Virus record (IMG/VR): IMGVR_UViG_3300028666_000026
Location: 1-64,000 of that record
Length of the DNA: 64,000 nt
Reading direction: 5' to 3' (one strand)
Source: a virus
In this document: one piece after another, positions 4,839 through 64,000 of the stretch
How the letters are laid out: each line of letters starts with the position of its first letter
Numbering within the stretch: position 1 is the first letter of the stretch
Program-made: the position numbers and the translations under genes
The notes under the pieces: generated by a model
What the model was told of the DNA's origin: nothing
What the model saw: only the letters and a program-made list of their open reading frames with translations
Databases searched by the model: none

Positions 4839-5276
4839 TTAAGCAGTCACTTCGGCCTCCGTCACTTCGTAGCGCACTACGTGTTCGTTCAAATGGCCCA
4901 GCGCCATGGGGATTATCCAACGCAAGTTAGGCGCTAAAGTTTCTGGCAACCAAGGTACGTGCCAAGGACCTATTACTTCGTCCTCCGCAGTTCGCGCCGT
5001 CGCAACCATCACTGTGCTGAAGGCGTGAAAGAAATGAACCACCCAGCCGTTGCCGTGTAGAACAAGAAACTCACTCCATTCTTCCTGCGCAGTACTGACG
5101 CCAGTTTCCTCCTTGAACTCACGCACCATTGCAGCAAGCGGCAGCTCTGTATCTTCTACGTGGCCGCCGACGCCGTTCCATTTGCCAATGAGACATTCCG
5201 GTCCGCGGTTCTTCTTGATCAGCACTACGCGGTCTTTGTCTTCGCTGAACGCCAGCCCTACTACATACTCAGTCAT
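4839..5276 (-). CDS. NUDIX hydrolase
   Basis: Nudix box GGHVEDTELPLAAMVREFKEETGV. Confidence 0.75.
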   Translation of the reverse strand: MTEYVVGLAFSEDKDRVVLIKKNRGPECLIGKWNGVGGHVEDTELPLAAMVREFKEETGVSTAQEEWSEFLVLHGNGWVVHFFHAFSTVMVATARTAEDEVIGPWHVPWLPETLAPNLRWIIPMALGHLNEHVVRYEVTEAEVTA

Positions 5277-11276: not shown

Positions 11277-11351
11277 TGGTGGACCCGCAGGGATTCGAAC
11301 CCTGGACCGAAGGATTATGAGTCCTCTGCTCTACCGCTGAGCTACAGGTCC
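11277..11351 (-). tRNA. tRNA-Met (or Ile2) anticodon CAU, CCA encoded
   Basis: Cloverleaf read by hand: acceptor GGACCUG/CGGGUCC, D GCUC/GAGC, anticodon stem GAGGA/UCCUU loop CUCAUAA, T CAGGG-UUCGAAU-CCCUG, ACCA. Confidence 0.85.
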
Positions 11352-39903: not shown

Positions 39904-39976
39904 ACGAACGTAGCTCATTTGGTAGAGCACCAGGTTTTGGGCCTGGAGGCTGTCGGTCCGAGTCCGACCGTTCAAT
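39904..39976 (+). tRNA. tRNA-Gln (UUG) candidate
   Basis: D arm GCUC-AUUUGGUA-GAGC, anticodon stem CCAGG/CCUGG loop UUUUGGG, T arm GUCGG-UCCGAGU-CCGAC; acceptor has mismatches at 1-72/2-71. Confidence 0.4.
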
Positions 39977-39997
39977 GATTGAACCGCTACACTGGGA

Positions 39998-40069
39998 GTT
40001 GACATAGCTCAGAGGCAGAGCAGTTGATTCGTAATCAATAGGCCGGTGGTTCGATCCCACCTGTTGACT
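39998..40069 (+). tRNA. tRNA-Thr (CGU)
   Basis: Acceptor GUUGACA/UGUUGAC, D GCUC/GAGC, anticodon stem GUUGA/UCAAU loop UUCGUAA, T GGUGG-UUCGAUC-CCACC. Confidence 0.75.
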
Positions 40070-40325
40070 CCCTTGATGCTTTGAAGGCCGGACTGAGGAT
40101 TCGGAATAGCCTAGCCGTTTAACGTGAACGGCAAACAACGTGCGCAGAGGTTATGTGCCTCCTAAGCGTGGCGTTCCTTCAAAGCATCTTCAAGATTGAG
40201 TGTCCTAGTCCGAAACAGACTAGGTGGTGGAGGCGAGCCGTGAAAGGTTTGCCCCGTAAGTTAAGCATGTCAACACTGTGGTAGAAGCAATTTCGGACGT
40301 GGGTTCAATTCCCACCGAGTCCACC
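40070..40325 (+). ncRNA. tmRNA(ssrA)-like element with 3' tRNA-like domain and CCA
   Basis: 3' end AAUUUCGGACGUGGGUUCAAUUCCCACCGAGUCCACCA nearly identical in pattern to bacterial tmRNA 3' end; GGAUUCG near 5'; GCAAACAACG resembles resume-codon context. Confidence 0.4.
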
Positions 40326-40342
40326 AAAGAGTTCTGTGAGGA

Positions 40343-40585
40343 ATGACAATAACAGCGAAAGCTGATGGGCTGCGACTAAAGCGCGCAGACTATGCGAGCA
40401 GAACTCTTTTGTGGGCTCGTTCCGGTTTCGACGGAATTGACGAGCTACAGCTTCATGTCGGGATTGATGCTCACCGTAACGAGAATCAGCATAAAACTGC
40501 CACTCAACGTGTCAGCGAGAAGCGCAACAACGTGCTCGCCTTCCCTGTGAAGCGTCACGCTGCTGAACTTCAAATGGCTGCTTAA
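40343..40585 (+). CDS. hypothetical protein (first rightward gene)
   Basis: 80 aa, RBS GAGGA. Confidence 0.4.
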   Translation: MTITAKADGLRLKRADYASRTLLWARSGFDGIDELQLHVGIDAHRNENQHKTATQRVSEKRNNVLAFPVKRHAAELQMAA

Positions 40586-40922
40586 TCGCAGTCGGGGCAA
40601 GCCGGGTGATGCCTAGCAACAGAAGAGACCGGCAAGATAAGCGTGGCTGCTACGAGCCAGCCGGTGACTCTGGGATAAGCAGAGTGGACACAAGCAACAG
40701 CCGGAACAGCGTAGCCAGACGAGAGGTCCGACGTCTCGTCATTGAAGGGCATTTGAACTTTGTCTTTGAGTGCCCTTCGAGTTTGGGGAGCTGCAAACAC
40801 AGTAGCACAACACAGGCGTCTTAAGAGACACCTCGCGGCATGCGCCGCAATACGTTGTGCTGGGCAGCCATGGCGTGACGGGCAAGCATGCTGAGTCGCA
40901 CTTACCAATGGAGATAACTAAC

Positions 40923-41639
40923 ATGGCCACCGCTAAGAAGAAGCAGGGCGCGCCCAAAGCGTCAGCTTCATCGCGGGAGCGCCCATCGTCGCAGTCCAGA
41001 GCCGATGCACGCGCAGCGCGTAAAATAGCGTGGCGAGTAGGACATCGCAAAGTAATCGACGATATACAAGCTGCAAAACCCAGTGTGCCTGATCGTGTTG
41101 TAGGCATCATGGGCAAGTCCAAGCCTGATGTACAGGTGATTCGTACCGGCAAGATTGGCAGACCTCCCATTGCTTACACAGATGAGCTAGACGAGCAGCT
41201 ATTCGAGTTGATTGTGTCTGGTTTATCACTTGAGAAAATATCGCGTTTGTCCAACATGCCTAGTGTGTCTGTGCTCCTGTATTGGGTCGGAACGAAGACA
41301 CACCCGTTCTCAGCCACGTACGCGCGCGCTAAGGCGTTACTTGTCCCGCTTTACGAAGAACGCGCGATAGACCTGGCTACGGAGCGGCAAGAGGCAACCA
41401 TCCACGTGGTGCGTGACGGCGAAGATGGGTCTTACATCGAGACGCGGAGAGTAGACGCCGTGGAGCGCAGTAAGTTAGGTGTGTCTGCTTACCAGTGGGC
41501 ACTTGGGTGGATGGTGCCTAAGAAGCACGGACGCAATCCTGACGACGGCAACAAGGGACCCAACGAGCAGCTGAAGTCGCTGTTCGACAATCTCATGTCC
41601 GGGCCGGTATTGAAGCAAAAGAAGCAAGGAGTCAAGTGA
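40923..41639 (+). CDS. putative terminase small subunit
   Basis: Basic N-terminus, GRPPIAYTDELDEQLFELIVSGLSLEKISR HTH-like segment; directly upstream of TerL module. Confidence 0.5.
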   Translation: MATAKKKQGAPKASASSRERPSSQSRADARAARKIAWRVGHRKVIDDIQAAKPSVPDRVVGIMGKSKPDVQVIRTGKIGRPPIAYTDELDEQLFELIVSGLSLEKISRLSNMPSVSVLLYWVGTKTHPFSATYARAKALLVPLYEERAIDLATERQEATIHVVRDGEDGSYIETRRVDAVERSKLGVSAYQWALGWMVPKKHGRNPDDGNKGPNEQLKSLFDNLMSGPVLKQKKQGVK

Positions 41640-42374: not shown

Positions 42375-42523
42375 GGGTACCCAGTGACACGCTCTTGCTG
42401 GTTGAGGAGTCAGGCGTGCAGGCTTTAGTGGCCGTGCGCTTCAATAGCGAGGGTGCTGACTTTGAGTTCATAGTTGCTTTGGACGAAGATGGCGATACTG
42501 TCGTGGTTGAGGACGCAGCATGA
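42371..42523 (+). CDS. small acidic protein (50 aa)
   Basis: Hand-translated, ATGA coupling at both ends. Confidence 0.3.
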   Translation: MRVPSDTLLLVEESGVQALVAVRFNSEGADFEFIVALDEDGDTVVVEDAA

Positions 42524-43821
42524 ACACCATGACGCAGGACGCTCCCACTGAAGCAATCATGAAACCGTTCGGCGAGAAGGCGTGGAACTTCATCACGCGC
42601 GAGCCGAAGTATGACAAGAAGTACACCATTCTCGAGGGATCGGTTAGATCAAGTAAGACATTCACTATCGACGCCAAGACCATCGTGCAGTACAGTCAGT
42701 ACGAAGTACCGGGCAAGCGATTCATCGGCGGCGTGAGTAAGGACTCCGTACACCGTAATATGCTGCTGGACTTGTTCGCCATAGCAGGACGCGACAACTA
42801 CTCGTACAACATGGCTTCGGGCGAGCTGTTCCTGTTCGGCAAGCAATACTTCGTTGTTGGCGCTAAGGACGAAGCGTCATACAAGAAGATACTCGGGTCC
42901 ACCATCGGCTTATTCCTTGGCGACGAAATTGTTGAGTTTCCCAAGAGCTTCTTGGCCCAGGTGTGGATGCGTATGTCGCCCGACGGCGCACGCTTTGTAG
43001 GTTCCACCAACCCAGGTAATCCGTACTGCTATCTCAAGTCCGAAGTGATTGACAATCCGGACTTCGCGCCAAAGATGGAAGTGATTCACTTCGTCTTGGA
43101 CGACAACCCTAACATCAGTGCCGAGGCTAAGGCCGACATTGTCGCTTCTCAGTCCGGAGTGTTCAAACTCCGCTACATTGATGGACTGTGGGTCGTGGCC
43201 GAGGGCGCTATCTATCGTGATTGCTGGGATGAAGTTGAGAATCAGTTCAGCGGCGTGGTCACCGTCAATAGTAAGGAAGTGTTGCTGGCCGAGGAGCCGC
43301 CCGGACTACGTCACACTGGCGGACACGTTGATCACTGGTTCAGTGTCGATCCTGGTGTAGACCACCCGCAGGTACACCTTGAGTTCTTCGATGATGGCGA
43401 CATAGTCTGGTGCGTTCGTGAGCAGGTGTGGGATTCTCGCCTGGAGCGCAAGCAGAAGACCGACGGTCAGTACTCTAAAGACCTGCAGGACTTTGGCGCG
43501 CTGGGCCACGAAGTACGCGTGCCGCCCGAGGCTGCATCACTGAAGGCGCAGTTGCTGCTGGACGGCTTCTGGGTGGTAGATGCTGACAACGCCGTCACCG
43601 AGGGCATACATACTGTCAGCACCCTGCTGAGCCGCCGCAAGCTGCGCATCAGCAAGTCTGGTTGCCCACGGTTGAGCAAGCGCATACCCACTTACGCCTG
43701 GAATGACAAGGCCGCAGTACGTGGTGTTGAGGAGCCACTCAAGAAGGAAGACGACGAAGCTGACGCTTTCCGCTACGGCGTTCACGGCAAGATACCGCAG
43801 TGGCGCGTGATTGGCGGGTAG
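42520..43821 (+). CDS. terminase large subunit
   Basis: Walker A EGSVRSSKT, Walker B LFLGDEIVEF, C-terminal nuclease-like acidic residues. Confidence 0.85.
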   Translation: MNTMTQDAPTEAIMKPFGEKAWNFITREPKYDKKYTILEGSVRSSKTFTIDAKTIVQYSQYEVPGKRFIGGVSKDSVHRNMLLDLFAIAGRDNYSYNMASGELFLFGKQYFVVGAKDEASYKKILGSTIGLFLGDEIVEFPKSFLAQVWMRMSPDGARFVGSTNPGNPYCYLKSEVIDNPDFAPKMEVIHFVLDDNPNISAEAKADIVASQSGVFKLRYIDGLWVVAEGAIYRDCWDEVENQFSGVVTVNSKEVLLAEEPPGLRHTGGHVDHWFSVDPGVDHPQVHLEFFDDGDIVWCVREQVWDSRLERKQKTDGQYSKDLQDFGALGHEVRVPPEAASLKAQLLLDGFWVVDADNAVTEGIHTVSTLLSRRKLRISKSGCPRLSKRIPTYAWNDKAAVRGVEEPLKKEDDEADAFRYGVHGKIPQWRVIGG

Positions 43822-45605: not shown

Positions 45606-45974
45606 ATGAGTGAGCCTCAAGTAGACATGACCAAGTGGGCCGATCGCGCCGCCACGCCTGAAGAAGTTCAGCTGGCGCAGCAGGCCGACCTGCCCGAAGG
45701 CCCCAAGCCTATCGCCGTGTTCATACCGGCCATTGACATCAGAATGCTTTACGCTGCGCGCACTTCGCCCGAGCAGTTCAATCAGTGCATACTGGCCAGG
45801 TTGAAAGACGCTGGCGCGCCGGTTGAAGGTACGATCCATTTGAAGCTGGCCCACGGAGCCGTCGCCAAGAAGAAGTCCAACCCGCTGGTGGACGAAGGCG
45901 GATTCACGTATCTTTGGTTGAGCGAAGAATATGTCCGCGCAATCATGACAGCGAAGGGCGGAGTATTGGGATGA
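45606..45974 (+). CDS. hypothetical protein
   Basis: RBS AGGAGAG, internal Met start. Confidence 0.45.
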   Translation: MSEPQVDMTKWADRAATPEEVQLAQQADLPEGPKPIAVFIPAIDIRMLYAARTSPEQFNQCILARLKDAGAPVEGTIHLKLAHGAVAKKKSNPLVDEGGFTYLWLSEEYVRAIMTAKGGVLG

Positions 45975-47215
45975 TACTAACGCGCGTTGCAGGCGTGTTC
46001 CCTGTGCTTGTGCGCGCGACGGACGCAGAGCCTGAGTTCGTCGAAACCAAGCATCCTCGTGATAAGGACGGCAAGTTTGCCAAGGGCAGTGGCGGCGGCG
46101 CTTCTAAGTCATTGCCCAAGGGTATGGAGCACTTTTCCGGTCAGCAATACAAGAACGCATCAGCGTTTATACAAGCCGCGCTGAAGGAGAATCTGGCCAG
46201 TAAATCCAATAAGTACAACAATGCGCAGATAGCTGAAGCAGCGCAGGCAATGTTCGGCACCAAGACTTCGCCGTTCACTGTTAACGGCTACAAGCACGCG
46301 GTGTACAACAAGAGCCCAGAAGGACAAGCGCTGCTGGCTGCCAAGAAGGCAGGAGTCAAGGCCAACAATGAAGTCATAGCTGCAGCGCCCACTTCGCCGG
46401 CAGCTGTTAAGGCCGCTGTGGCCAATGTTGTCAGCGGCGTGACTATGTTCGCCAGCGTTAAGAAGAACGGCGTGACAACGTTCGTGAAGTTGAACGGAGT
46501 GCCTAGTAACTTCAGCGGTGACATGGTCAAGCAGTACATAAAGGAGCTGGGCTACGACGCGTACAACGTATCGGAGTTCAACCCAAGTAAGCCAGCGCCG
46601 CCTTCTGTCACTGAATTGACAATCAGCCCAGAGGCAGCAGAAGCTGTACAGAAGGCAGCCAAGAAGAAGGCCGAGGCAGAAGCAGCTGAGTACGCAAAGG
46701 CAGCAGCGGCCAAGGCTGAGGCCAGTAAGCCAGTCACCAAGCATACCAGCCCTATTACGGCCAGCGAGATTGAAGTTATTGAGTCGTACACTAATGGTGC
46801 GTATGGCGCGATGAATAAAGCACTGCGCAATGGCACCAAGTTGTCCTCACAGGAAGCCATCAGAATTAAGCAGTTGGACCAGGCCATTGCCAAGTCGGTA
46901 TTGGAGAAACCGTGCACACTGCGACGCGGCATTTCTGCCACTGACATCGCCAGCGTTATAGGGCCCAGTCCCAAGGTTGGCGACGTTGTGATGGACAACG
47001 GCTTCATGTCTTCTTCTAAGGGCAAGGGATTTGGCGGCAATATTCGCATGACTATCAACATGCCTGCTGGGGCGCACGCGTTGGATGTGCAGAAGTGGTC
47101 TAATCACAGCAGTGAAATGGAAGTGATTTTGCCTCGTGGTTCCATGTTCGAGATCAAGAGTTTTGGCAAGACAGAATCAGGCGTAATGCTCGAGGTTGAC
47201 TATGTCACGGTTTGA
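45971..47215 (+). CDS. ADP-ribosyltransferase (R-S-E toxin type, T4 Alt-like) virion protein
   Basis: C-terminal domain with Arg (TLRRG), STS (FMSSS), E-x-E (SEMEV) in canonical order; YTNGAYGAMNKALR. Confidence 0.75.
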   Translation: MILTRVAGVFPVLVRATDAEPEFVETKHPRDKDGKFAKGSGGGASKSLPKGMEHFSGQQYKNASAFIQAALKENLASKSNKYNNAQIAEAAQAMFGTKTSPFTVNGYKHAVYNKSPEGQALLAAKKAGVKANNEVIAAAPTSPAAVKAAVANVVSGVTMFASVKKNGVTTFVKLNGVPSNFSGDMVKQYIKELGYDAYNVSEFNPSKPAPPSVTELTISPEAAEAVQKAAKKKAEAEAAEYAKAAAAKAEASKPVTKHTSPITASEIEVIESYTNGAYGAMNKALRNGTKLSSQEAIRIKQLDQAIAKSVLEKPCTLRRGISATDIASVIGPSPKVGDVVMDNGFMSSSKGKGFGGNIRMTINMPAGAHALDVQKWSNHSSEMEVILPRGSMFEIKSFGKTESGVMLEVDYVTV

Positions 47216-47999
47216 AACAGAAGCTGACCGCCAAGCGCGGTACACGTGGGACGCCACCTCTGGCGTAGAAGTGGTACGGCGTGGGGCTGGCAAGTCCATA
47301 GACCTGGAGAGCGTTATGTCCGCGGAAGCCAACGACGCAGTACTTCCTGTGCCAGTGTTGGGACGAGACGCGCTCCCACGCAGTGAAGCGATGAACGTTA
47401 CCAAATATAAAGGGTACGACATTTGGCCTCAGTACAGCGGTGGCAGTTTGAAATTTTTCTGGTACCGTCCCGGTGTGAAGAAGGCGCAGGGCTGGGCAAA
47501 GGATGAAGATTGGGCCAAGTTCTACATAGACCTGGATATAAAGAATAAGCGCGGTGCCAAAGACATGCGCACCGTTCCGTCCAAGCTGACCAACGCCTGC
47601 ATTTACTGCAACAACGACCATGATCCTGCCATTCAGTGCCGCAACACTGCCGGCAACCCAGCCAATGTGCAGGCCGGCAAGGTCAAGCCGGTGCCAATGC
47701 CAGGTATTGTGCGCAAGAAGGCTGTGAAGGTGGGGGACGAGGCTACTTCACGATGCAGAGAGTGCGGGCAGCGTATACCAGTTAAATCTGGTGAGCGTGG
47801 TTTGCAATTTTATGTTGAGCATAACAGGTTAGATGGCGTCATTTGTCCTAAAAGTGGTACGTGGGCTGCACAATATACTAAGGACTCAGCCAGAGCAAAG
47901 GACGTAACTTGCCGCAATTGTGGCGGAGAGCTTGCTGCTAAGGGACCGGGTACTGGGCTGTGCACTAGGTGTGCTAAGGACGTAGTACAGCCCGTATGA
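47196..47999 (+). CDS. hypothetical Cys-rich protein
   Basis: 267 aa with several CxxC pairs. Confidence 0.5.
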   Translation: MTMSRFETEADRQARYTWDATSGVEVVRRGAGKSIDLESVMSAEANDAVLPVPVLGRDALPRSEAMNVTKYKGYDIWPQYSGGSLKFFWYRPGVKKAQGWAKDEDWAKFYIDLDIKNKRGAKDMRTVPSKLTNACIYCNNDHDPAIQCRNTAGNPANVQAGKVKPVPMPGIVRKKAVKVGDEATSRCRECGQRIPVKSGERGLQFYVEHNRLDGVICPKSGTWAAQYTKDSARAKDVTCRNCGGELAAKGPGTGLCTRCAKDVVQPV

Positions 48000-48856
48000 C
48001 CGCCAAGCAACCACCCGCCTTCGGTCCCACGCAGCGCCTACAGCACGAGTATGAGCGCGGTATGCGTGAAGTTGTCAAGCGTATTCTCGCGCCCAAGCTG
48101 CCCAGTCAAACGTTCGATCAGTGGGTGGCCGAGTTAGCCGAGCGCTCGCGCAGGCCGGACGTGCAGTCGGCTTCTGAATTTCTTGCCCGTAAAATGTTCC
48201 AGTGGGCAAACATCACTAATGCTCGCACGTGGCGAGAAGCCGCTAGTAAAAGCCAGCAGTCGCGCAAGCTGTTCAAGCTGCTCACGGCTGAGATGCGGAC
48301 AGCTACGGGCGCGCGTGTTACCGGCCTGGTGCGCGAGAACGCCAAGCTGATCAGCTCGCTGCCCATTGTTGCAGCGCAGACGCTGACGGACGAGATACTC
48401 AAGGCGCAGCAGTCAGGGGCGCGTGCCGACACCTTGGCCAAGATGATGCGTACCCGGTTCCCTGAGTTGATGCGCAGCCGTGTGCACCTTATCGCTAGGA
48501 CGGAAACCGCCAAGGCTAGCACCGCATTGACTGAGGCGCGCTGCGCAGAACTGAGCATCGATTGGTACGTGTGGGAGTCTTCAAAGGATCAACGTACGCG
48601 TAAGAGTCACAAGAATCTGCATGGTGTGCTCATTCCCTGGGCACATGCGCCGTCGCCGGAGGAGCTGGTGAGTTTGCCCAGTTACGGCCACTACCATGCC
48701 GGCACTACGTTCAATTGTCGCTGCACGCAAATTCCGTTGCTTACGTTCCAGGATGTTAGCTGGCCGCACCGTGTATATTGGGGCAACTCAGTAAGCCAGA
48801 TGACACTGCCCGAGTTCAAGCGCATAGCAACCGGCGTCGAGACACGCGCCGCATAA
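47996..48856 (+). CDS. head morphogenesis protein (Mu F / SPP1 gp7 family)
   Basis: ARTETAKA...SIDWYVW...RTRKSHKNLHG ... FNCRCT C-terminus. Confidence 0.8.
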   Translation: MTAKQPPAFGPTQRLQHEYERGMREVVKRILAPKLPSQTFDQWVAELAERSRRPDVQSASEFLARKMFQWANITNARTWREAASKSQQSRKLFKLLTAEMRTATGARVTGLVRENAKLISSLPIVAAQTLTDEILKAQQSGARADTLAKMMRTRFPELMRSRVHLIARTETAKASTALTEARCAELSIDWYVWESSKDQRTRKSHKNLHGVLIPWAHAPSPEELVSLPSYGHYHAGTTFNCRCTQIPLLTFQDVSWPHRVYWGNSVSQMTLPEFKRIATGVETRAA

Positions 48857-50264: not shown

Positions 50265-52277
50265 ATGGCTCCACGGCCACGCAAGAATTTCACTAAGCGC
50301 ACCCGGCCCACGTTCGGCGAGGCTGCACTAGGGCTGCAAGGCAAGACGCCCTTTGCCATGGGCAAAGACTTTTACACCAATGCGGCAGCACGCATGGGTT
50401 GGGGTACGCCATCGCTTAACGAATCTGGTGGCTACGAGATGGTGAGGTTCAGCTATAACTATTGGGAACTCATCACTCTGTTTCGCAATCACTGGATCAG
50501 CCGACGCATTGTTGAGACACCGGCCATTGACATGGTGCGTGCGTGGCCCAAGCTGACCAGTGATATCGACTCTGAAGACCTGACCAAAATCGACAGAGCC
50601 ATTCGTCGCACCAACACCAAAAACCAAGTGCAGACAGCCATAACCTGGGCGCGGCTGTTCGGCGGCGCTGGTGCATTAATCGTTATCGACGGGCAGGAGC
50701 GTGACCTGGAAGAGCCGTTGGACTTGGATTCTATCCCGCTAGGCGGCTACAAGGGTCTCAGCCCGTTTGATCGCTGGGCCGGGATCATGCCGGAAGGTGA
50801 AATATGCACTGACCCAAGCCGTCCGTTGGACTTCAACAAGCCTGAGCATTACACGGTCACCCCTACTGGCGGTGCTTCGTTCAAGGTGCACAGTAGTCGC
50901 GTTCTGCGGTTCACTGGCCCTGAAGTGCCTACGCCAGAGCGCGAGGCGCAGACGTGGTGGGGCATTTCGGTGCTGGAGCCCATCTACGAGGACATTCGCA
51001 AGTACGACTCTATGTCGTTCAACATTTTGTCGTTGACATATAGAGCCAACATTCTCGGCATGAAGTTCCCTGATCTTGCTTCGCTGCTTTCCGGACTAGG
51101 GTCTAGCCAGAAGGCGTCGCAAGGCTTCGAACAGCGTATGTACAACATCAATCATCTTATCAGCAATCAATCTTTGGTTCCGTTGCCGGCTGATGGCGGT
51201 ATTGAGTCCACGCAGTATTCGTTCGGCGGGTTGGCCGAGGTATTCCAGCTATTCCAGTTGGCGCTGAGCGGCGGCTCGCAGATTCCTGTTACACGCTTGT
51301 GGGGCCGTACATACACAGGTCTGGGCGCGGCGCGCGAACAGGACGAAATGCTGTACGAGGAAAAGATTGCCTCTGACCAAACTCAAGGCATGATACCGCA
51401 GTTAGAGAAGTTGTATCCTGTCATTTGCATGTCAGAGTTGGGCGAAGTGCCTGACGACCTTGATCTTCTCTGCCCTTCCATTCGTGTATTGGATGAGAAG
51501 GAAAAGGGTGAGATGGCCAAGAACATCGTGGACGTCAGCACTGTACTTCTCAACAGCGGCATCATGTCGCCGCGCATCGTAGCTCAAGAAGTGAAGCAGT
51601 CCAGCGACATCACCGGCTTCGGCACTAACTTGACCGACGAGTTCATCGAAACGCTCAGCGATAAGGTGCAGAGCGAAGGCGAAATGGGCGAAGGCATGTT
51701 CGGCGCTGAAGAAGGCGAACCTAACCTGTCGCCAGCTGCCAGTCCGCAGAAAGTGCTGCGCGAAGTAGGCAAGGAGAAGAAGGAAGAAGAGCCCGAGTCG
51801 AAACCTGACAAGGCCAAGGCGGCGGACTCCGACGGTCCAGGACACACTGTCAAGGTGCACGGACTTACTGCCGTGATTGAGACGCCCAAGGGTTACAGTC
51901 GTCATGGCAAGACGCCGGATGGGAAGTCGTGGCACCAGGTTATGCCGTATCACTACGGCTACCTTCGTGGCATTGAGGGCGCAGACGGTGACAGCCTAGA
52001 CGTTGCGCTGGGCGATGATCCTTCTTCTGACTGGGTGTACGTGTTCGACCAAGCGCACCTGCCGGGCGGTAAGAAGAGTGGCTTTGACGAGTCCAAGGTA
52101 TTCGCTAACTTCTCGAGTCAGGGTGACGCACTGCGCGCTTTCAAGGCAGGGCATCACCAGGCTGAGCGAGTATTTATGGACTTCACGCCAATGCAGGCCA
52201 CTGACTTCAAGGCTTGGCTGGCTTCGGCTGACCTGCACAAGCCCTGTGGCATGGGTGGTGGGAGTTTGCCGGTATGA
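50265..52277 (+). CDS. portal protein with C-terminal extension
   Basis: N-terminal 480 aa portal-like (NAAARMGWG...YNYW..L..NHWISRRIV); acidic linker; C-terminal ~170 aa extra domain. Confidence 0.6.
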   Translation: MAPRPRKNFTKRTRPTFGEAALGLQGKTPFAMGKDFYTNAAARMGWGTPSLNESGGYEMVRFSYNYWELITLFRNHWISRRIVETPAIDMVRAWPKLTSDIDSEDLTKIDRAIRRTNTKNQVQTAITWARLFGGAGALIVIDGQERDLEEPLDLDSIPLGGYKGLSPFDRWAGIMPEGEICTDPSRPLDFNKPEHYTVTPTGGASFKVHSSRVLRFTGPEVPTPEREAQTWWGISVLEPIYEDIRKYDSMSFNILSLTYRANILGMKFPDLASLLSGLGSSQKASQGFEQRMYNINHLISNQSLVPLPADGGIESTQYSFGGLAEVFQLFQLALSGGSQIPVTRLWGRTYTGLGAAREQDEMLYEEKIASDQTQGMIPQLEKLYPVICMSELGEVPDDLDLLCPSIRVLDEKEKGEMAKNIVDVSTVLLNSGIMSPRIVAQEVKQSSDITGFGTNLTDEFIETLSDKVQSEGEMGEGMFGAEEGEPNLSPAASPQKVLREVGKEKKEEEPESKPDKAKAADSDGPGHTVKVHGLTAVIETPKGYSRHGKTPDGKSWHQVMPYHYGYLRGIEGADGDSLDVALGDDPSSDWVYVFDQAHLPGGKKSGFDESKVFANFSSQGDALRAFKAGHHQAERVFMDFTPMQATDFKAWLASADLHKPCGMGGGSLPV

Positions 52278-55714: not shown

Positions 55715-58700
55715 ATGGCAATTGCTTTTGTAGGCAGCGCGTTCTCCACTGGCAGCACCACGGCTGGTACCAGCAAGACAATCACATACAGTCCAGCCGC
55801 CAACAACACCCTTGTAGTATTCGGATTTGCTGCTGGCGCAGCAGTCACTAACGTCACCGACTCAGCTGGAAACAAGTATTATCAACGATCGAATCCGGCC
55901 ACTAACACCACTGAGGCCATGTGCTGGAGCACCAACGCTGGAGCGTCAATAGCCGGCACTAGCATAACCATAACGGTCACGTTCGGCTCGTCGGTACGTA
56001 ATACTTGTGTCATTGTTGAGTACTCGGGTGTCACCGGCATTGGAAAAGCCAACACCTCCACCGGCACTAATGCTGGACCCACCATAGCGTTGGGCATACA
56101 GAACGCCAACAACGTATTGGTGGCTGGACTTTCTGTAGAGAGTACTTCAACGTACTCGTTAACTACTGGAACAGCGCTGCGTACCAGTCAAGCTGGCGCT
56201 GGAGCTACCACGCCCGGTGGTTGCGTAATAGATAACACTAATGCTTCAGCAAATACCAGTGTTACATGCACAGCAGCCATCACTAGTGGTGCGTGGGCTG
56301 GTGCGGCGCTGGAGCTGACTACCGTCCAGGCTGCCATCGATAACGGTACTGACGACAACTGGTGGGGCGCTGTAAGGCTGCCATTAAGCAAGGCACTGGC
56401 GGCATCCATCACTGCCGTCTCGCTGCTCGGTTTCCCTTTACAGGGCGCAGCCGCTAAACTTGTCACGGACGAGGACCACTGGCAGAACCGTGTAGCGCCT
56501 GTCCCGCTTACACTGGCTTATCCGCAGCAGTTTTTATTTGACAGCGGAGATATTCCCACTGTCAGTGCGTTTCAGCCTGGCGAGGATTATTGGTCTGTAC
56601 AGTTTCAGTATGCAAATCAGCCTAGTGTAGTTCTAGGATTTCCTGCTCAGGGCGCTGCCGCTGCGCTTGTTACTGACGAAGATGACTGGGAGAATCCAGC
56701 ACCTCCACCGTCGCCGCCGACTAATTTTGTATACATTCCCGTAGACGGGGATTTCGCGCCATTCATCGTCGCCTTTACACCAGACGAGGATATCTACCAA
56801 AGCCAGGTAGCACCTATTGTGTCATCAATGGGTGCTTTGTACTGGTATGACCAGGCCGGTCTAGGCTTCACCACGCTGGAAGAGGACTTTTGGTTAGGCC
56901 CTCCTCCGCCGGTTACACCGTGGTCAGCAAATGCGTTGTACTGGTTTGACACTGGTGGTCTAGACTTCACCACGCTGGACGATGACTATTGGCTGAATCA
57001 AACGTCGCCCACGCAACTGACACTGGGATACCCGTCGCCATGGTTCGACCAAGGCGACATTGACTTCACTCAGCAAGACGAAGAGCTGTGGCAGAATCAA
57101 GTTGTACCGCAGCAGTTAGCATTTCAGTACCCAGCACCATGGCAGTTTGAGCAGGACGAACCTAGCACGCTTAGTGGTCAGCCTGACGAGGATTTCTGGT
57201 CTGTATATGCACCAGCTTGGCTCACTACGCCGCCGTTACAGGCTGTACGTGACGACGAAGTATGGACTACGCAGATTGTTGAGGAAGAACTGTGGCGCGG
57301 TGGTTTGCCGACGCAGCTCGCACTCAACTACCTGGCTCCTTGGTTCGACCAGGGCGACGTTGACTTCACGCAGCAAGATGAGGAGTTTTGGCAGAATCAA
57401 GCTGCACCTGCGCAGTTAGTATTTCAGTATCCTGCGCCGTGGCAGTTTGAGCAGCATGAACCTGGTACACTTAGTGGACAACCTGACGAGGACTTCTGGC
57501 AGAACTATGTAGCACCTGTGCAGTTGGTGTTGCAGTGGCCGCAGCCATACATCTTCGATCAGGATGAGCAAGACTTCGGGCTACATGGACAGCCGGACGA
57601 GGACTTCTGGGTAAATGGCGTAGCACCTACGCAGTTAGTATTCCAATACCCAGCGCCTTGGCAGTTCGAGCAGAATGATCCGTCTACACTTAGTGGTCAA
57701 CCTGATGAAGATTTCTGGATAAGCAATTTAGCGCCTGTCCAGGCCGCGTTCGGTTATCTGTCTCCATGGCTTGATCAGGGCGACGTTGACTTCACGCAGC
57801 AAGATGAAGAGCTGTGGCAGAATAGAGTACCTGCACAGCAACTTACATTGGCCTATCCAGCGCCTTGGTTCGATCAAGGCGACGTAGATTTCGTACAACA
57901 AGACGAAGACTTCTGGGTCAGCAGCATAACGCCTATACAGTTGGCGTTCCAGTATCTTGCTCCATGGCAATTCGAGCAGGACGATCCTTCGACACTGAGT
58001 GGTCAACCTGACGAAGACCTATGGATAAACAGCGTTGTACCTGTGCAGCTTACGCTGCGCTACCCGACGCCTTGGCAGTTTGAACAAAACGAGCAGGCAA
58101 CACTTGCCGGCCAGCCGGACGAAGACTTCTGGCTGAACTTCGTCGCGCCGGTTCAAGCCACGCTTGTCTACCCGGCACCATGGCAGTTTGATCAGGATGA
58201 ATCGCCCACGCTGGAAGGTCAGCTGGACGAAGACTTCTGGGTAAATCGCGTACAGCCGCAGCAGCTAGCGTTCCAGTGGCTGCAGTTTACAGAGCAAGCT
58301 GAGTTGTGCTTTGCCACTGTCGATGATGACTTCTGGCAAAACACAGTACTGCCGACACAGCTAGCATTCGTCTATCCAGCACCGTGGCAGTTCGATCCGC
58401 AAGACACGGCGGTATTGAGCGGCCAACCTGACGAAGACTTCTGGGTCAGCGGTGTAGCACCAACGCAGCTGGCTTTTGCATATCCAGCACCGTGGCAATT
58501 CGAGCAGCACGATCCTGCAGGATCGCTAGTCGGCACGCTTGAAGAGGAGTTTTGGCGTAACGCTGTAGCACCTGTACAGGCATTGCTGGGGCCGTTATAT
58601 CTACCGGAACCGGAAGAGTTACCGGCTGGCCTCTTGCATTCTCCAGAGGAAGATTTCTGGGAGAATCAAGTGGCTCCAATTCAGCTTGCCTTCCAGTGGC

Positions 58701-59968
58701 CGCAGCCTTACACGTTTGAGCAAGATGATCCTGCGACACTTAGTGGACAACCTGACGAGGACCTTTGGCAGAACGCCGTAGCTCCAATTCAGCTTGCCTT
58801 CCAGTGGCCGCAGCCTTACATCTTCGATCAAGACGAGCAGGACTTCGGTCTATACGGACAGCCCAACGAAGACCTTTGGGTCAACAGCGTACTGCCTGTA
58901 CAGTCCACGTTCACACTGCCGGTACAGTGGCAGTTTGAACAGGGCGAGTCTGCTGGCAGTCTGTACGGCTTGCCAGAAGAGTTGTACTGGCTCAATCCTG
59001 TCGCTCCAGTGCGCAGTACGTTTGCGCCAATATACTTGCCGGAGCCGGAGGAATTGCCGGCTGGTAGTTTGTCTTCGACCACTAAAGACGAAGACTTCTG
59101 GATTAACAGTGTAGCGCCGACTCAGCAAACGATGGGTCGTCTCTACGCACCAGACCTGGATGATACACGTCCAATACCAGCGCAGACGTTCTTCCCAGAA
59201 GAAGATTTCTGGAAGAATGGTGTTGCTCCAGTACAGTTCACACTGCTTTATCCAGCGCCATGGGCTGGCGAGCAGCATGATACTGCGAAGTTAAGCGGTG
59301 TACCAGAAGAAGATTTCTGGAATAATGCTGTAGCTCCTGTACGGTCTACATTCACTTATCCATTACCATGGGTAGGCGAGCAGCACGACACTGCGAAGTT
59401 AAGCGGCGTGCCAGAAGGCACAGATACTTGGACGAATTACGTAGCGCCAGTACGGTCTGCGTTCTCGCCCTTGTTATTGTGGGAACAGAGTGACCTCGAC
59501 TTCAACACTGTCGAGGAAGATCTGTGGCTTAACAATGTCGCCGTTGTTCGGTCTACATTCCAGAAACTAGTATTCTGGGATCAGGGCGACGTAGGCTTCA
59601 CCATTGCCGAAGAAGAGTTTTGGCAGAATGGTGTCGCACCTGTGCAATCTACGTTTGGTAAGGCGTACTTACCAGACGTTGAGCAGCACACTGCGCAGCT
59701 CAGTGGTCAGCCGGACGAAGACTACTGGCAGAACTGGGCTAAGCCAACACAATTCACGTTGCTCTACCCAGCACCGTGGATTTCTGACACTCAAGAACCG
59801 CAGTTATTCGGCGGCGCTACGGATGACGATTACTGGATGCCTTTGCAAACAGTGGTTATGGCGACGCAGTCAACACAACTGCTGTTTTGGGACGTGGATG
59901 ATGGTGGCTTAGTACCGCCGCGTAATCCCACATCGTTCGTAACGTGGATATCTGGCAACTTTACATAG
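55715..59968 (+). CDS. giant tandem-repeat virion protein (1417 aa; fibre/adhesin candidate)
   Basis: N-terminal ~240-aa G/S/T/A domain then ~28 tandem ~40-aa units [DE]EDFW-N-VAP-QL-FQYPAPWQFEQ--P-TLSGQP. Confidence 0.8.
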   Translation: MAIAFVGSAFSTGSTTAGTSKTITYSPAANNTLVVFGFAAGAAVTNVTDSAGNKYYQRSNPATNTTEAMCWSTNAGASIAGTSITITVTFGSSVRNTCVIVEYSGVTGIGKANTSTGTNAGPTIALGIQNANNVLVAGLSVESTSTYSLTTGTALRTSQAGAGATTPGGCVIDNTNASANTSVTCTAAITSGAWAGAALELTTVQAAIDNGTDDNWWGAVRLPLSKALAASITAVSLLGFPLQGAAAKLVTDEDHWQNRVAPVPLTLAYPQQFLFDSGDIPTVSAFQPGEDYWSVQFQYANQPSVVLGFPAQGAAAALVTDEDDWENPAPPPSPPTNFVYIPVDGDFAPFIVAFTPDEDIYQSQVAPIVSSMGALYWYDQAGLGFTTLEEDFWLGPPPPVTPWSANALYWFDTGGLDFTTLDDDYWLNQTSPTQLTLGYPSPWFDQGDIDFTQQDEELWQNQVVPQQLAFQYPAPWQFEQDEPSTLSGQPDEDFWSVYAPAWLTTPPLQAVRDDEVWTTQIVEEELWRGGLPTQLALNYLAPWFDQGDVDFTQQDEEFWQNQAAPAQLVFQYPAPWQFEQHEPGTLSGQPDEDFWQNYVAPVQLVLQWPQPYIFDQDEQDFGLHGQPDEDFWVNGVAPTQLVFQYPAPWQFEQNDPSTLSGQPDEDFWISNLAPVQAAFGYLSPWLDQGDVDFTQQDEELWQNRVPAQQLTLAYPAPWFDQGDVDFVQQDEDFWVSSITPIQLAFQYLAPWQFEQDDPSTLSGQPDEDLWINSVVPVQLTLRYPTPWQFEQNEQATLAGQPDEDFWLNFVAPVQATLVYPAPWQFDQDESPTLEGQLDEDFWVNRVQPQQLAFQWLQFTEQAELCFATVDDDFWQNTVLPTQLAFVYPAPWQFDPQDTAVLSGQPDEDFWVSGVAPTQLAFAYPAPWQFEQHDPAGSLVGTLEEEFWRNAVAPVQALLGPLYLPEPEELPAGLLHSPEEDFWENQVAPIQLAFQWPQPYTFEQDDPATLSGQPDEDLWQNAVAPIQLAFQWPQPYIFDQDEQDFGLYGQPNEDLWVNSVLPVQSTFTLPVQWQFEQGESAGSLYGLPEELYWLNPVAPVRSTFAPIYLPEPEELPAGSLSSTTKDEDFWINSVAPTQQTMGRLYAPDLDDTRPIPAQTFFPEEDFWKNGVAPVQFTLLYPAPWAGEQHDTAKLSGVPEEDFWNNAVAPVRSTFTYPLPWVGEQHDTAKLSGVPEGTDTWTNYVAPVRSAFSPLLLWEQSDLDFNTVEEDLWLNNVAVVRSTFQKLVFWDQGDVGFTIAEEEFWQNGVAPVQSTFGKAYLPDVEQHTAQLSGQPDEDYWQNWAKPTQFTLLYPAPWISDTQEPQLFGGATDDDYWMPLQTVVMATQSTQLLFWDVDDGGLVPPRNPTSFVTWISGNFT
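56440..59900 (+). repeat. in-frame tandem DNA repeats (~120-126 bp units)
   Basis: Recurring cagcctgacgaggacttctgg / ccagcgccttggcagttcgagcag blocks. Confidence 0.8.
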
Positions 59969-62892: not shown

Positions 62893-64000
62893 AGCAATTA
62901 TCGACGCAACGCAGTCTGCATCCGGATACTTGGTCAGTCCGCTGAGTGATAACATCAGCGAAACTGATGAAGGCTATCTGGTCATTGTAGGCTGTCCAAT
63001 TGCGCGCACAGGGTTTCAGGATTATGCGGTCAAAGACCTGCCTCAAGAAGCAGCTGAGGCGCTGGGCGTTGACATCAGCAATCCTTCGGCCACCATCAGT
63101 CTTTACCGTCCTGCCTCGGAGGTGTTCGCCCCAGAGTTTCTTGCGTCATTAAATGGCAAACCTATCACGGATAACCATCCTGAGAATTTTGTCAACGCAG
63201 ATAACTTCAAGCAGTACGCTCTTGGACATATACAGAATCCGCGCAAGGGCACTGAGCAGTTAGAAGACGGCGAGTGGCCTCTTATTGCGGACTTGGTAAT
63301 CAGCGGCGAGCCATTGATTGGCAAAGTGCGTGCTAGAACACAGCGCGATGTCAGTCTAGGTTACGACTACGGCATTCGTCGTGAGGGCAAAAAGATTATT
63401 CAGTGCGATTTGCTGGGTAATCATGCTGCCATTGTACCCAAGGGCCGCGCCGGTGACTTCGTCAGTATTCAGGACGCAGCACCAGAGCTGAGCGCAGTAG
63501 TTGGTACTTTGACCATCAAGAACGGCATAGTCTTGGCCGACAAAGTTCTTGAAACATCCACCGCTGCTCCGCCTGAGCCTGCTGCGGCTTTGCCGCCTGA
63601 GCCCAGCGCCGGGCACGCAGCGCAAACAAATAACGCTGTAAAACCAATTAAGGAGAAGCACAAGGTGAAGAATCCACTTCTGCACCTCTTTGGCCTCGGA
63701 TTGAAGGCCAAGGCTCAGGAAGAGAACACCGACCCTGAGGAACTCGCGCAGGCGGCTCTGGATATGAGTAAGTACCAGGCCTCTCGTGCACGTGCCGCCG
63801 ATTCCGAAGATCCCGATGAGGGTGAACTGGCTGAAGAGGCTGCGAAGGACAAGAAAAAGTCCAAGGATCGTAAGAAGGGCAAAGACGATCTCGGCGATCC
63901 TGAGGACAAGGACGTCGAACCGCCTGCCGTCGACGCGGGGCGCAAGCAGCTGCATGACGCTCTGGACAAGGTCATGGATAAGAAGAAGGGCGGCAAGGAC
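62885..64000 (+). CDS. putative capsid assembly protease/scaffold-like protein (partial, continues past window)
   Basis: ATGA-coupled open frame; GKPITDNHPE...GYDYGIRREGKK..NHAAIVPKGRAG then highly charged K/E/D tail. Confidence 0.4.
   Translation, partial: MPEAIIDATQSASGYLVSPLSDNISETDEGYLVIVGCPIARTGFQDYAVKDLPQEAAEALGVDISNPSATISLYRPASEVFAPEFLASLNGKPITDNHPENFVNADNFKQYALGHIQNPRKGTEQLEDGEWPLIADLVISGEPLIGKVRARTQRDVSLGYDYGIRREGKKIIQCDLLGNHAAIVPKGRAGDFVSIQDAAPELSAVVGTLTIKNGIVLADKVLETSTAAPPEPAAALPPEPSAGHAAQTNNAVKPIKEKHKVKNPLLHLFGLGLKAKAQEENTDPEELAQAALDMSKYQASRARAADSEDPDEGELAEEAAKDKKKSKDRKKGKDDLGDPEDKDVEPPAVDAGRKQLHDALDKVMDKKKGGKD

Follow-up and report, generated by a model that had tools for sequence, protein, structure and literature searches.

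The window analysed here is the 64,000-nucleotide stretch at positions 1 to 64,000 of the IMG/VR virus record IMGVR_UViG_3300028666_000026, a phage genome fragment from a metagenomic contig of 105 kb, and its head module contains a gene for a protein of 414 residues ending in an ADP-ribosyltransferase (ART) domain. The gene belongs to a block of plus-strand genes that includes the small (TerS) and large (TerL) terminase subunits, a MuF-type head morphogenesis protein and the portal protein (Table 1). Five or six small open reading frames (ORFs) lie between the ART gene and the terminase, and one ORF of 265 residues lies between the ART gene and MuF, which agrees with the position between terminase and MuF/portal genes given in the first-pass annotation of the sequence. 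The ATG start codon at 45971 is preceded by a GGAG-like site and overlaps the stop codon of the upstream small ORF as ATGA, and the TGA stop codon occupies positions 47213-47215.

Table 1. Features of the ART locus and of the head module in the window (nucleotide positions; residue numbers are those of the ART protein; pLDDT, predicted local distance difference test).
Feature	Positions	Strand	Description and basis
ART gene	45971-47215	+	414 aa: leader, accessory N-terminal domain, long helix, R-S-E ADP-ribosyltransferase domain; ORF, profile and model
Leader motif	46037-46099	+	F23-x-E25-x-x-H28-P-R-D31-x-x-G34-K-F36-x-x-G-x-G-G-G43; residues 1-50 predicted disordered, pLDDT <55
Accessory N-terminal domain and long helix	46118-46726	+	Residues ~50-217, then helix 220-252; confined to this ART lineage
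ART catalytic domain	46736-47212	+	Residues 256-414; R319 (46925-46927), S347-S348-S349 (47009-47017), E382-M-E384 (47114-47122)
Downstream ORF	47202-47999	+	265 aa; overlaps the end of the ART gene by 14 nt; GAGG site in front of its start; leader of ~45 aa (FETEADRQARYTWDATSGVEVVRRGAGK), then Cys-rich (CxxC) region
Upstream small ORF	45606-45974	+	Stop overlaps ART start; kept between terminase and MuF in related phages
Small terminase, Sf6 type	40857-41639	+	PF20901
Large terminase subunit (TerL)	42520-43821	+	phrog_2 at 1e-24; 62% identity to the terminase of L009
MuF / SPP1 gp7-type head morphogenesis protein	47996-48856	+	PF04233 1.4e-16; TIGR01641 1.6e-17; phrog_324 2e-43
Portal protein (Phage_portal_3) with C-terminal InPase domain	50265-52277	+	PF06381 2.8e-85; PF18823 5.3e-29
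DUF2213 (Pa193_gp24-type) head protein homologue	62927-63757, runs towards window end	+	5.1e-36; 46% identity to the L006 protein

Residues 259-402 of the ART protein match PF03496 (ADPrib_exo_Tox) with an E-value of 3e-20 and 72.8 bits, against a Pfam gathering score of 23.4. The PHROG families for Alt-like ARTs, MuF-ART fusions and ART exoenzyme toxins all match at about 1e-12, the MuF-ART fusion family (phrog_595) at 1e-11. Among PDB sequences, phmmer matched Listeria Lmo0066 (8za7_B, 2.9e-10), Serratia Tre1 (6dre/6drh, 2e-7) and ExoT (7e-7), as well as ExoS and C3larvin, and the RRG, SSS and EME strings of the ART align to the catalytic R, S-T-S and E-x-E of these enzymes. The three strings that had been read as a catalytic set, CTLRRGIS (residues 315-322), GFMSSSKG (344-351) and NHSSEMEVILPRGS (378-391), are all present in the C-terminal part, in the order R, Ser-x-Ser, Glu-x-Glu. 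Across 11 stand-alone homologues with 33-48% identity, R319, S347, E382 and E384 are invariant, as they are in an alignment of four homologues, and S349 varies between Ser and Ala. In the larger alignment the helix motif YT-G-Y...N..LR (Y273/Y278/N282/L285-R286) is invariant or nearly so, and D342-N-G344 is invariant.

The AlphaFold2 model of the protein has a mean pLDDT of 76, with most of the ART part between 73 and 94, and Foldseek retrieved with it 141 PDB chains at E<=1e-3, the top 50 of which are all ART toxins. The best match was 8za7_B (1.3e-14, template-modelling score 0.74), followed by C3bot, Plx2A, Certhrax, VIP2, CDTa and Tre1. The profile match, the predicted structure and the invariant catalytic residues together show an intact catalytic set and place the domain in the R-S-E class of PF03496 (Alt/VIP2/C3), as the first-pass annotation had claimed; neither a non-catalytic family assignment nor a loss of the R/STS/ExE residues among homologues was seen.

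The E-x-E form of the ADP-ribosylating turn-turn (ARTT) loop is that of the arginine-specific members of the R-S-E family, and because the ART carries this form it would be arginine-specific. Side NADase activity is also frequent in R-S-E ARTs. This activity counts towards another possibility, in which the enzyme is not a protein arginine transferase and acts mainly as a NAD+ glycohydrolase, a nucleic-acid modifier or a user of NAD-capped RNA (ModB-type RNAylation). ART-fold toxins with NADase activity exist (PMC13285283), and the present data identify no substrate. Such a role is nonetheless very improbable for this protein, as it has the full catalytic set (R / S-x-S / E-x-E), the aromatic-rich ARTT region and the PF03496 membership of enzymes that modify proteins, such as Alt, VIP2, C3, ExoS/T and Tre1, and a few dozen injected copies would be poor at depleting NAD+.

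The region in front of the catalytic domain is predicted to consist of a disordered leader (residues 1-50), a helical bundle of four to five helices (53-138), a beta-beta-alpha-beta-beta unit (156-217) and a helix (220-252) leading to the ART domain. With residues 1-260 as the query, HMMER run exhaustively on 1.84 billion representatives gave only 15 proteins below 1e-10, and PF03496 follows the N-terminal region in nearly all of the relatives scanned from this search. By these searches the accessory domain of about 200 residues is lineage-specific, and it may serve in target selection or in positioning the enzyme. The lineage as a whole has only about 17 relatives among the same representatives; a word-indexed homologue search found three relatives for the ART, and its profile version few more. 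No match was found in 50,697 phage records for the 9.8-kb head region (megablast) or the ART (tblastn), no relatives were found in a pattern-limited scan of 185,579 species genomes, and neither the ART nor the ORF on either side of it belongs to an NCBIfam family.

In the relatives that do exist the same module is often the C-terminal part of a portal protein. In Pfam scans, Phage_portal_3 is followed by the module of leader, N-terminal domain and ART within one protein in five cases (P0009, P0050, P0054, P0022 and P0056). Three others also contain InPase, an inorganic pyrophosphatase domain of the polyvalent-protein type. A sixth protein (P0010) has the order portal, InPase, a middle region and the module; an ORF of the related locus L011 has portal, an X region, a Zn-ribbon, InPase and the module; and P0007 has InPase followed by the module. 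The relatives carrying the ART module are syntenic to the window, with 62% identity for TerL, 52% for MuF and 55-67% for the portal, and they have the DUF2213 protein and further ORFs in common with it. In L006/L009 the fusion of portal and ART module is followed by a gene for a leader plus InPase, whereas in the window the portal itself carries InPase, and a separate gene located after the terminase region and before MuF encodes the ART module. These arrangements of ART, InPase and portal are a clear case of module shuffling.

Because the ART module is covalently within the portal in relatives and free in the head module of the window, the free form is probably a head component too. The alternation of portal fusion and free gene in these genomes is strong comparative evidence for head association of the free ART, although not proof. 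The reading of the gene as a packaged and injected effector, which the first-pass annotation had suggested from its position and its motif, is thus strengthened by the portal fusions, and also by the generality of the motif among portal-appended and polyvalent effectors (see below), and remains inferred.

Head-module position may also reflect late co-expression only. An unpackaged late enzyme could act in the producing cell, as T4 ModA and ModB do, on host or phage proteins during assembly, or it could blunt a defence triggered by portal or terminase. The same alternative has been raised for head-module ARTs by Iyer et al. 2022 (PMC9503650), and the ART of the window is free-standing, with no fusion to portal or MuF. 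This role is considered unlikely, as in several relatives the module is covalently part of the portal polypeptide and is therefore placed in the capsid there, and as the leader motif of the ART is common to portal-appended effectors.

Two further observations concern the related loci. Topoisomerase IB genes lie directly upstream of the ART in three of them (L012, 6857-7831; L002, 1-879; L005, 2-568), and that of L012 carries the same leader and motif, so that in these phages a type IB topoisomerase may be packaged in the virion, in a way that recalls poxvirus cores. A second ART was considered in L003 (ORF 1-1056), where VYRGV...FTSS...EHEVL follows an internal copy of the motif, and was rejected, as Pfam, hhalign and the PDB sequence search were all negative and only the motif aligns.

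The HPRDKDGKF string noted near the N-terminus in the first-pass annotation is present at residues 28-36 (nucleotides 46052-46078) and is the core of a longer and widespread motif, [FW]xExxHPRDxxGKFxxGGG, here called the HPRD motif. It is kept in nine of ten stand-alone ART homologues. With the N-terminal region as the query, 51 of 55 proteins contain it, in one to six copies each and always at the start of a module; their domains include NUDIX, GNAT, histidine phosphatase, DUF2213, InPase, ART-PolyVal, topoisomerase IB and PBECR1, and proteins with such combinations are those termed polyvalent by Iyer et al. 2017 (PMC5512222). In L012 the portal is followed by separate genes for topoisomerase IB and for the ART, both of which open with a short leader and the motif.

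As a strict DNA pattern (E-x-x-HPRD-x-x-GKF) the motif was found in at least 120 IMG/VR stretches, where a rough estimate of the chance expectation is a few only, and all of the matches listed are in frame in long ORFs. Among the matches listed, it stands either within about 60 residues of the N-terminus, in small proteins, or, in proteins of 650-950 residues, about 500-620 residues from the N-terminus. Positions outside the search pattern are also kept in this set, namely an aromatic residue at -5 (F in 50%, W in 43%) and a glycine run at +11 to +14. A portal domain, from four portal families, is present in 21 of the 75 complete motif-bearing ORFs of the set, and others hold LPD3, a PF03496 ART, TopoIB, NUDIX, DUF2213, Zeta toxin, ART-PolyVal, PBECR, RelA/SpoT, MuF or SAM lyase. 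MuF homologues are close by in at least 28 motif-bearing loci. The motif also occurs in isolated phages, inside the annotated portal gene of Burkholderia phiE131, phiE058 and vB_E436 and of Faecalibacterium FP_Brigit. Small motif proteins with little else (P0026, P0030) have no Pfam family.

No Pfam model for the HPRD motif was found, and no paper on HPRD strings or polyvalent-protein linkers was found in the searchable literature; the 2017 paper on polyvalent proteins makes no mention of linkers (PMC5512222). From its placement, the motif would be a signal in cargo leaders or at junctions, either a peptide used for docking or a site of processing. A broader proposal, that it is a general capsid-cargo signal of tailed phages, marking modules that are carried behind the portal and ejected, whether fused, chained or encoded by separate genes, is put forward tentatively and is somewhat less probable than its converse. 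If it is true, the injected proteome of uncultured phages would become readable from sequence alone, and the motif would provide a tag for loading foreign cargo into capsids.

The 14-nucleotide overlap between the ART and the downstream ORF recurs in L002, L003 and L006. Of the downstream protein, only the first ~45 residues (…ETEADRQARYTWDATSGVEVVRRGAGK…) are kept in L002, L003, L005 and L006/L009. In L006/L009 this leader stands before an InPase domain, and in L005 the ORF has 58 residues and is essentially the conserved segment alone. The whole protein matched only itself among 5.8 billion proteins, with no homologues for the Cys-rich region, and no such downstream ORF is present in L011 and L012, both of which have the ART. 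Since the leader is joined to unrelated C-terminal parts, the downstream ORF would more likely encode another leader-tagged cargo than an immunity protein. An inhibitory peptide is less likely but has a parallel in Bxa and other MuF-ART toxins, next to which immunity genes are found (PMC11699363).

The last point belongs to a different explanation of the locus, a toxin-immunity module of the MuF-toxin or Bxa type. In such a module the ART would be a toxin, directed at bacteria or at the host and released or delivered for competition or superinfection exclusion, and the downstream ORF, or its 45-residue leader, would be a non-enzymatic immunity protein. The nearest solved homologues belong to such pairs (the ART-ARH pair of 8za7, and Tre1-Tri1), small immunity ORFs follow MuF-ART toxins such as Bxa (PMC11699363; PMC5576092), and both the conserved overlap and the reduced downstream ORF of L005 are as expected from a toxin with its immunity gene. 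The joining of the conserved leader to InPase in L006/L009 and to a Cys-rich orphan region here speaks against this arrangement, as do the two loci with the ART and without the downstream ORF. Also, no hydrolase of the ADP-ribosylhydrolase (ARH), Macro or NADAR type that could serve as an immunity gene was found among the ~100 ORFs of the window, and the ART is not fused to MuF. The phage has its own PolA, primase-helicase and SNF2 helicase, no integrase was found among the Pfam matches of the window, and the genome does not look temperate. The lack of relatives in the species genomes scanned argues against a prophage-borne competition factor. On balance a toxin-immunity module is improbable.

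Here it is proposed that the gene probably encodes an active arginine-directed mono-ADP-ribosyltransferase that is packaged near the portal and ejected with the DNA to modify one or more host proteins early in infection; packaging, ejection and arginine specificity are the inferred parts of this proposal. The ART would be made together with the head genes and built into the procapsid near the portal. Its disordered leader, with [FW]xExxHPRDxxGKF-GGG, would be what takes stand-alone cargo into the head, either because it docks on a head component or because it holds a processing site, and in the fused versions the motif would be the junction for cargo attachment or release. The enzyme would then be ejected into the next host cell along with the DNA, where, as infection begins, it would modify one or more host proteins with NAD+ of the host. 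By analogy with Alt the target may be RNA polymerase, and by analogy with Tre1 and Bxa-type enzymes it may be a division factor or a translation factor.

Several points weigh against this proposal. Virion incorporation, ejection and enzymatic activity of the ART are predictions, made for a phage represented by a metagenomic contig. The closest solved relatives (Lmo0066 and Tre1) are interbacterial toxins with immunity partners and not phage takeover enzymes, and the translationally coupled downstream ORF also resembles toxin-immunity pairs. Across all six reading frames of the window there is a single copy of the HPRD motif, which is therefore not a tag common to several cargoes in this phage. 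The portal-InPase junction of the window does not have the motif, which is therefore not needed for every appended module.

In the rest of the head module, the upstream small ORF has 41-49% identity to its counterparts in L009 and L012 (tblastn) and no family match in Pfam, PHROG or NCBIfam, and the MuF protein is the short form, without a toxin extension. The DUF2213 domain is in other phages itself preceded by the HPRD motif, at the ends of polyvalent proteins (P0018). The structural arm also has a 1417-residue ORF (55715-59968, plus strand) with no Pfam or PHROG family, and no major capsid protein was recognised across the window. The other arm (minus strand, 1-38.9 kb) carries the PolA and SNF2 helicase genes, a DUF3854/DUF5906 primase-helicase and genes for nucleotide metabolism. 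It also encodes a NUDIX hydrolase (4839-5276, minus strand) and a DUF4326 protein (24582-24947, minus strand; 4.5e-12). Both families have been assigned to the viral NAD+/ADP-ribose network (Iyer et al. 2022, PMC9503650), so the phage may hold further functions for processing ADP-ribose besides the ART.

A permuted transfer-messenger RNA (tmRNA) of the two-piece type is located at 40265-40585 on the plus strand (Rfam RF04321, 77.8 bits against a gathering score of 47, in agreement with ARAGORN), where the two divergent gene arms switch. The genes for tRNA-Gln (39904-39976) and tRNA-Thr (39997-40072) are just upstream of it, and tRNA-Met is at 11277-11351 on the minus strand. Permuted tmRNAs are typical of a few bacterial lineages, namely alpha- and some betaproteobacteria and cyanobacteria, and this restriction may therefore provide a hint to the host.

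The minus strand also encodes a protein of 870 residues similar to the major vault protein (MVP) (19178-21790; MVP_shoulder 8.5e-23, Vault_3 repeat 5.2e-11; no PHROG family). Its presence had led the first-pass annotation to see in the ART an echo of the pairing between vaults and the vault poly(ADP-ribose) polymerase (vPARP). This idea is not supported, as the MVP-like gene lies 25 kb from the ART on the opposite strand, in the replication arm, no related locus links the two, and vPARP belongs to another ART class. No MVP-like homologue was found in the related loci fetched, all of which are short fragments of the head module, and the co-occurrence is treated as coincidence until shown otherwise.

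Phage ARTs of the head module fused to MuF or portal have already been catalogued and proposed as injected first-line takeover enzymes. The gene described here is one more divergent lineage of the head-associated Alt/VIP2-family phage ARTs, with a strategy that is known. Its alternation between portal fusion and free gene is comparative evidence of an unusually direct kind that an ART of the Alt/VIP2 family is located in the capsid, and the lineage extends polyvalent, portal-appended architectures to the R-S-E clade. The leader motif offers a testable handle on how stand-alone cargo is recruited into heads outside the T4 group and, being widespread and without a description that could be found, it is the most promising lead from the ART locus.

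Among known systems, T4 Alt (AF158101) is the experimental precedent for a packaged and injected ART (PMC5512222), and the label "Alt-like" given in the first-pass annotation is correct at the level of the family. Both proteins match PF03496 (Alt at 5.8e-36), and BLASTP aligns residues 257-395 of the window ART to 443-587 of Alt with an E-value of 6e-5 over 160 residues. The same R-S-E set is present in both, with a near-identical E-x-E strand (SNEMEVILPRG versus SSEMEVILPRG), and in both the ART domain is C-terminal to a long non-catalytic region. Like Alt, the window ART is proposed to be cargo that is packaged in the head and injected. As an orthologue the label does not hold. No similarity exists outside the catalytic domain, including the N-terminal ~370 residues of Alt, to which the accessory domain of the window ART is unrelated. 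Alt does not have the HPRD leader motif, and the T4 gene context is absent, since alt is beside gp54 and gp30 (with baseplate genes 54/48 nearby) and the window gene is between terminase and MuF/portal. For these reasons the window ART is not an Alt orthologue. Entry of Alt into the head follows the T4 route of capsid targeting and gp21 processing.

Closest in sequence and structure among solved proteins are Tre1 of the Serratia type VI secretion system and Lmo0066 of Listeria, which are compact R-S-E domains of about 160 residues. Secretion systems deliver both, and their immunity partners are ARH or binding proteins, whereas the window ART belongs to a phage head module with a portal-linked context.

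The MuF polymorphic toxins (Jamet 2017), including Bxa of Bacteroides stercoris, are similar to the window in having an ART in the head morphogenesis module next to MuF, with delivery by the capsid proposed. Among MuF toxins 14% are ARTs (Jamet et al. 2017, PMC5576092), and Iyer et al. 2022 (PMC9503650) report MuF fusions for many ARTs of the Alt/VIP2 family. In MuF toxins the MuF domain is N-terminal, whereas the window ART has no MuF match and a short gene of its own, two ORFs further downstream, encodes MuF. The immunity ORF of a MuF toxin has fewer than 150 residues and is directly downstream; here a 265-residue ORF overlaps the ART gene, with only its 45-residue leader kept. Unlike the setting of MuF toxins, the window has no ARH-type immunity gene and its genome is not temperate-looking.

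The portal-fused and polyvalent effectors (Iyer 2017, 2022) provide the nearest architectural match. Phage ARTs are often beside terminase, portal and capsid genes, and for about 44% of them injection has been proposed on the basis of a head-packaging context or a fusion to MuF or portal (PMC9503650). The whole-module homologues of the window ART are the C-terminal parts of Phage_portal_3 proteins, with or without InPase, and the fusion of portal and InPase named by Iyer 2017 (PMC5512222) is present in the window. As in the window ART, the junction or leader motif of polyvalent effectors precedes TopoIB, NUDIX, GNAT, His-phosphatase, ART-PolyVal, PBECR, Zeta toxin and RelA/SpoT modules. Polyvalent proteins by definition have at least two effector domains, as P0010, P0007 and the L011 ORF have, whereas the window ART is a stand-alone protein with one effector domain and an accessory domain. 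In two other respects the window ART is like them, being encoded with portal and terminase packaging genes and having a domain common to other polyvalent proteins, and a polyvalent protein has been detected by proteomics in virions of phi24B (bioRxiv 10.64898/2026.04.10.717836).

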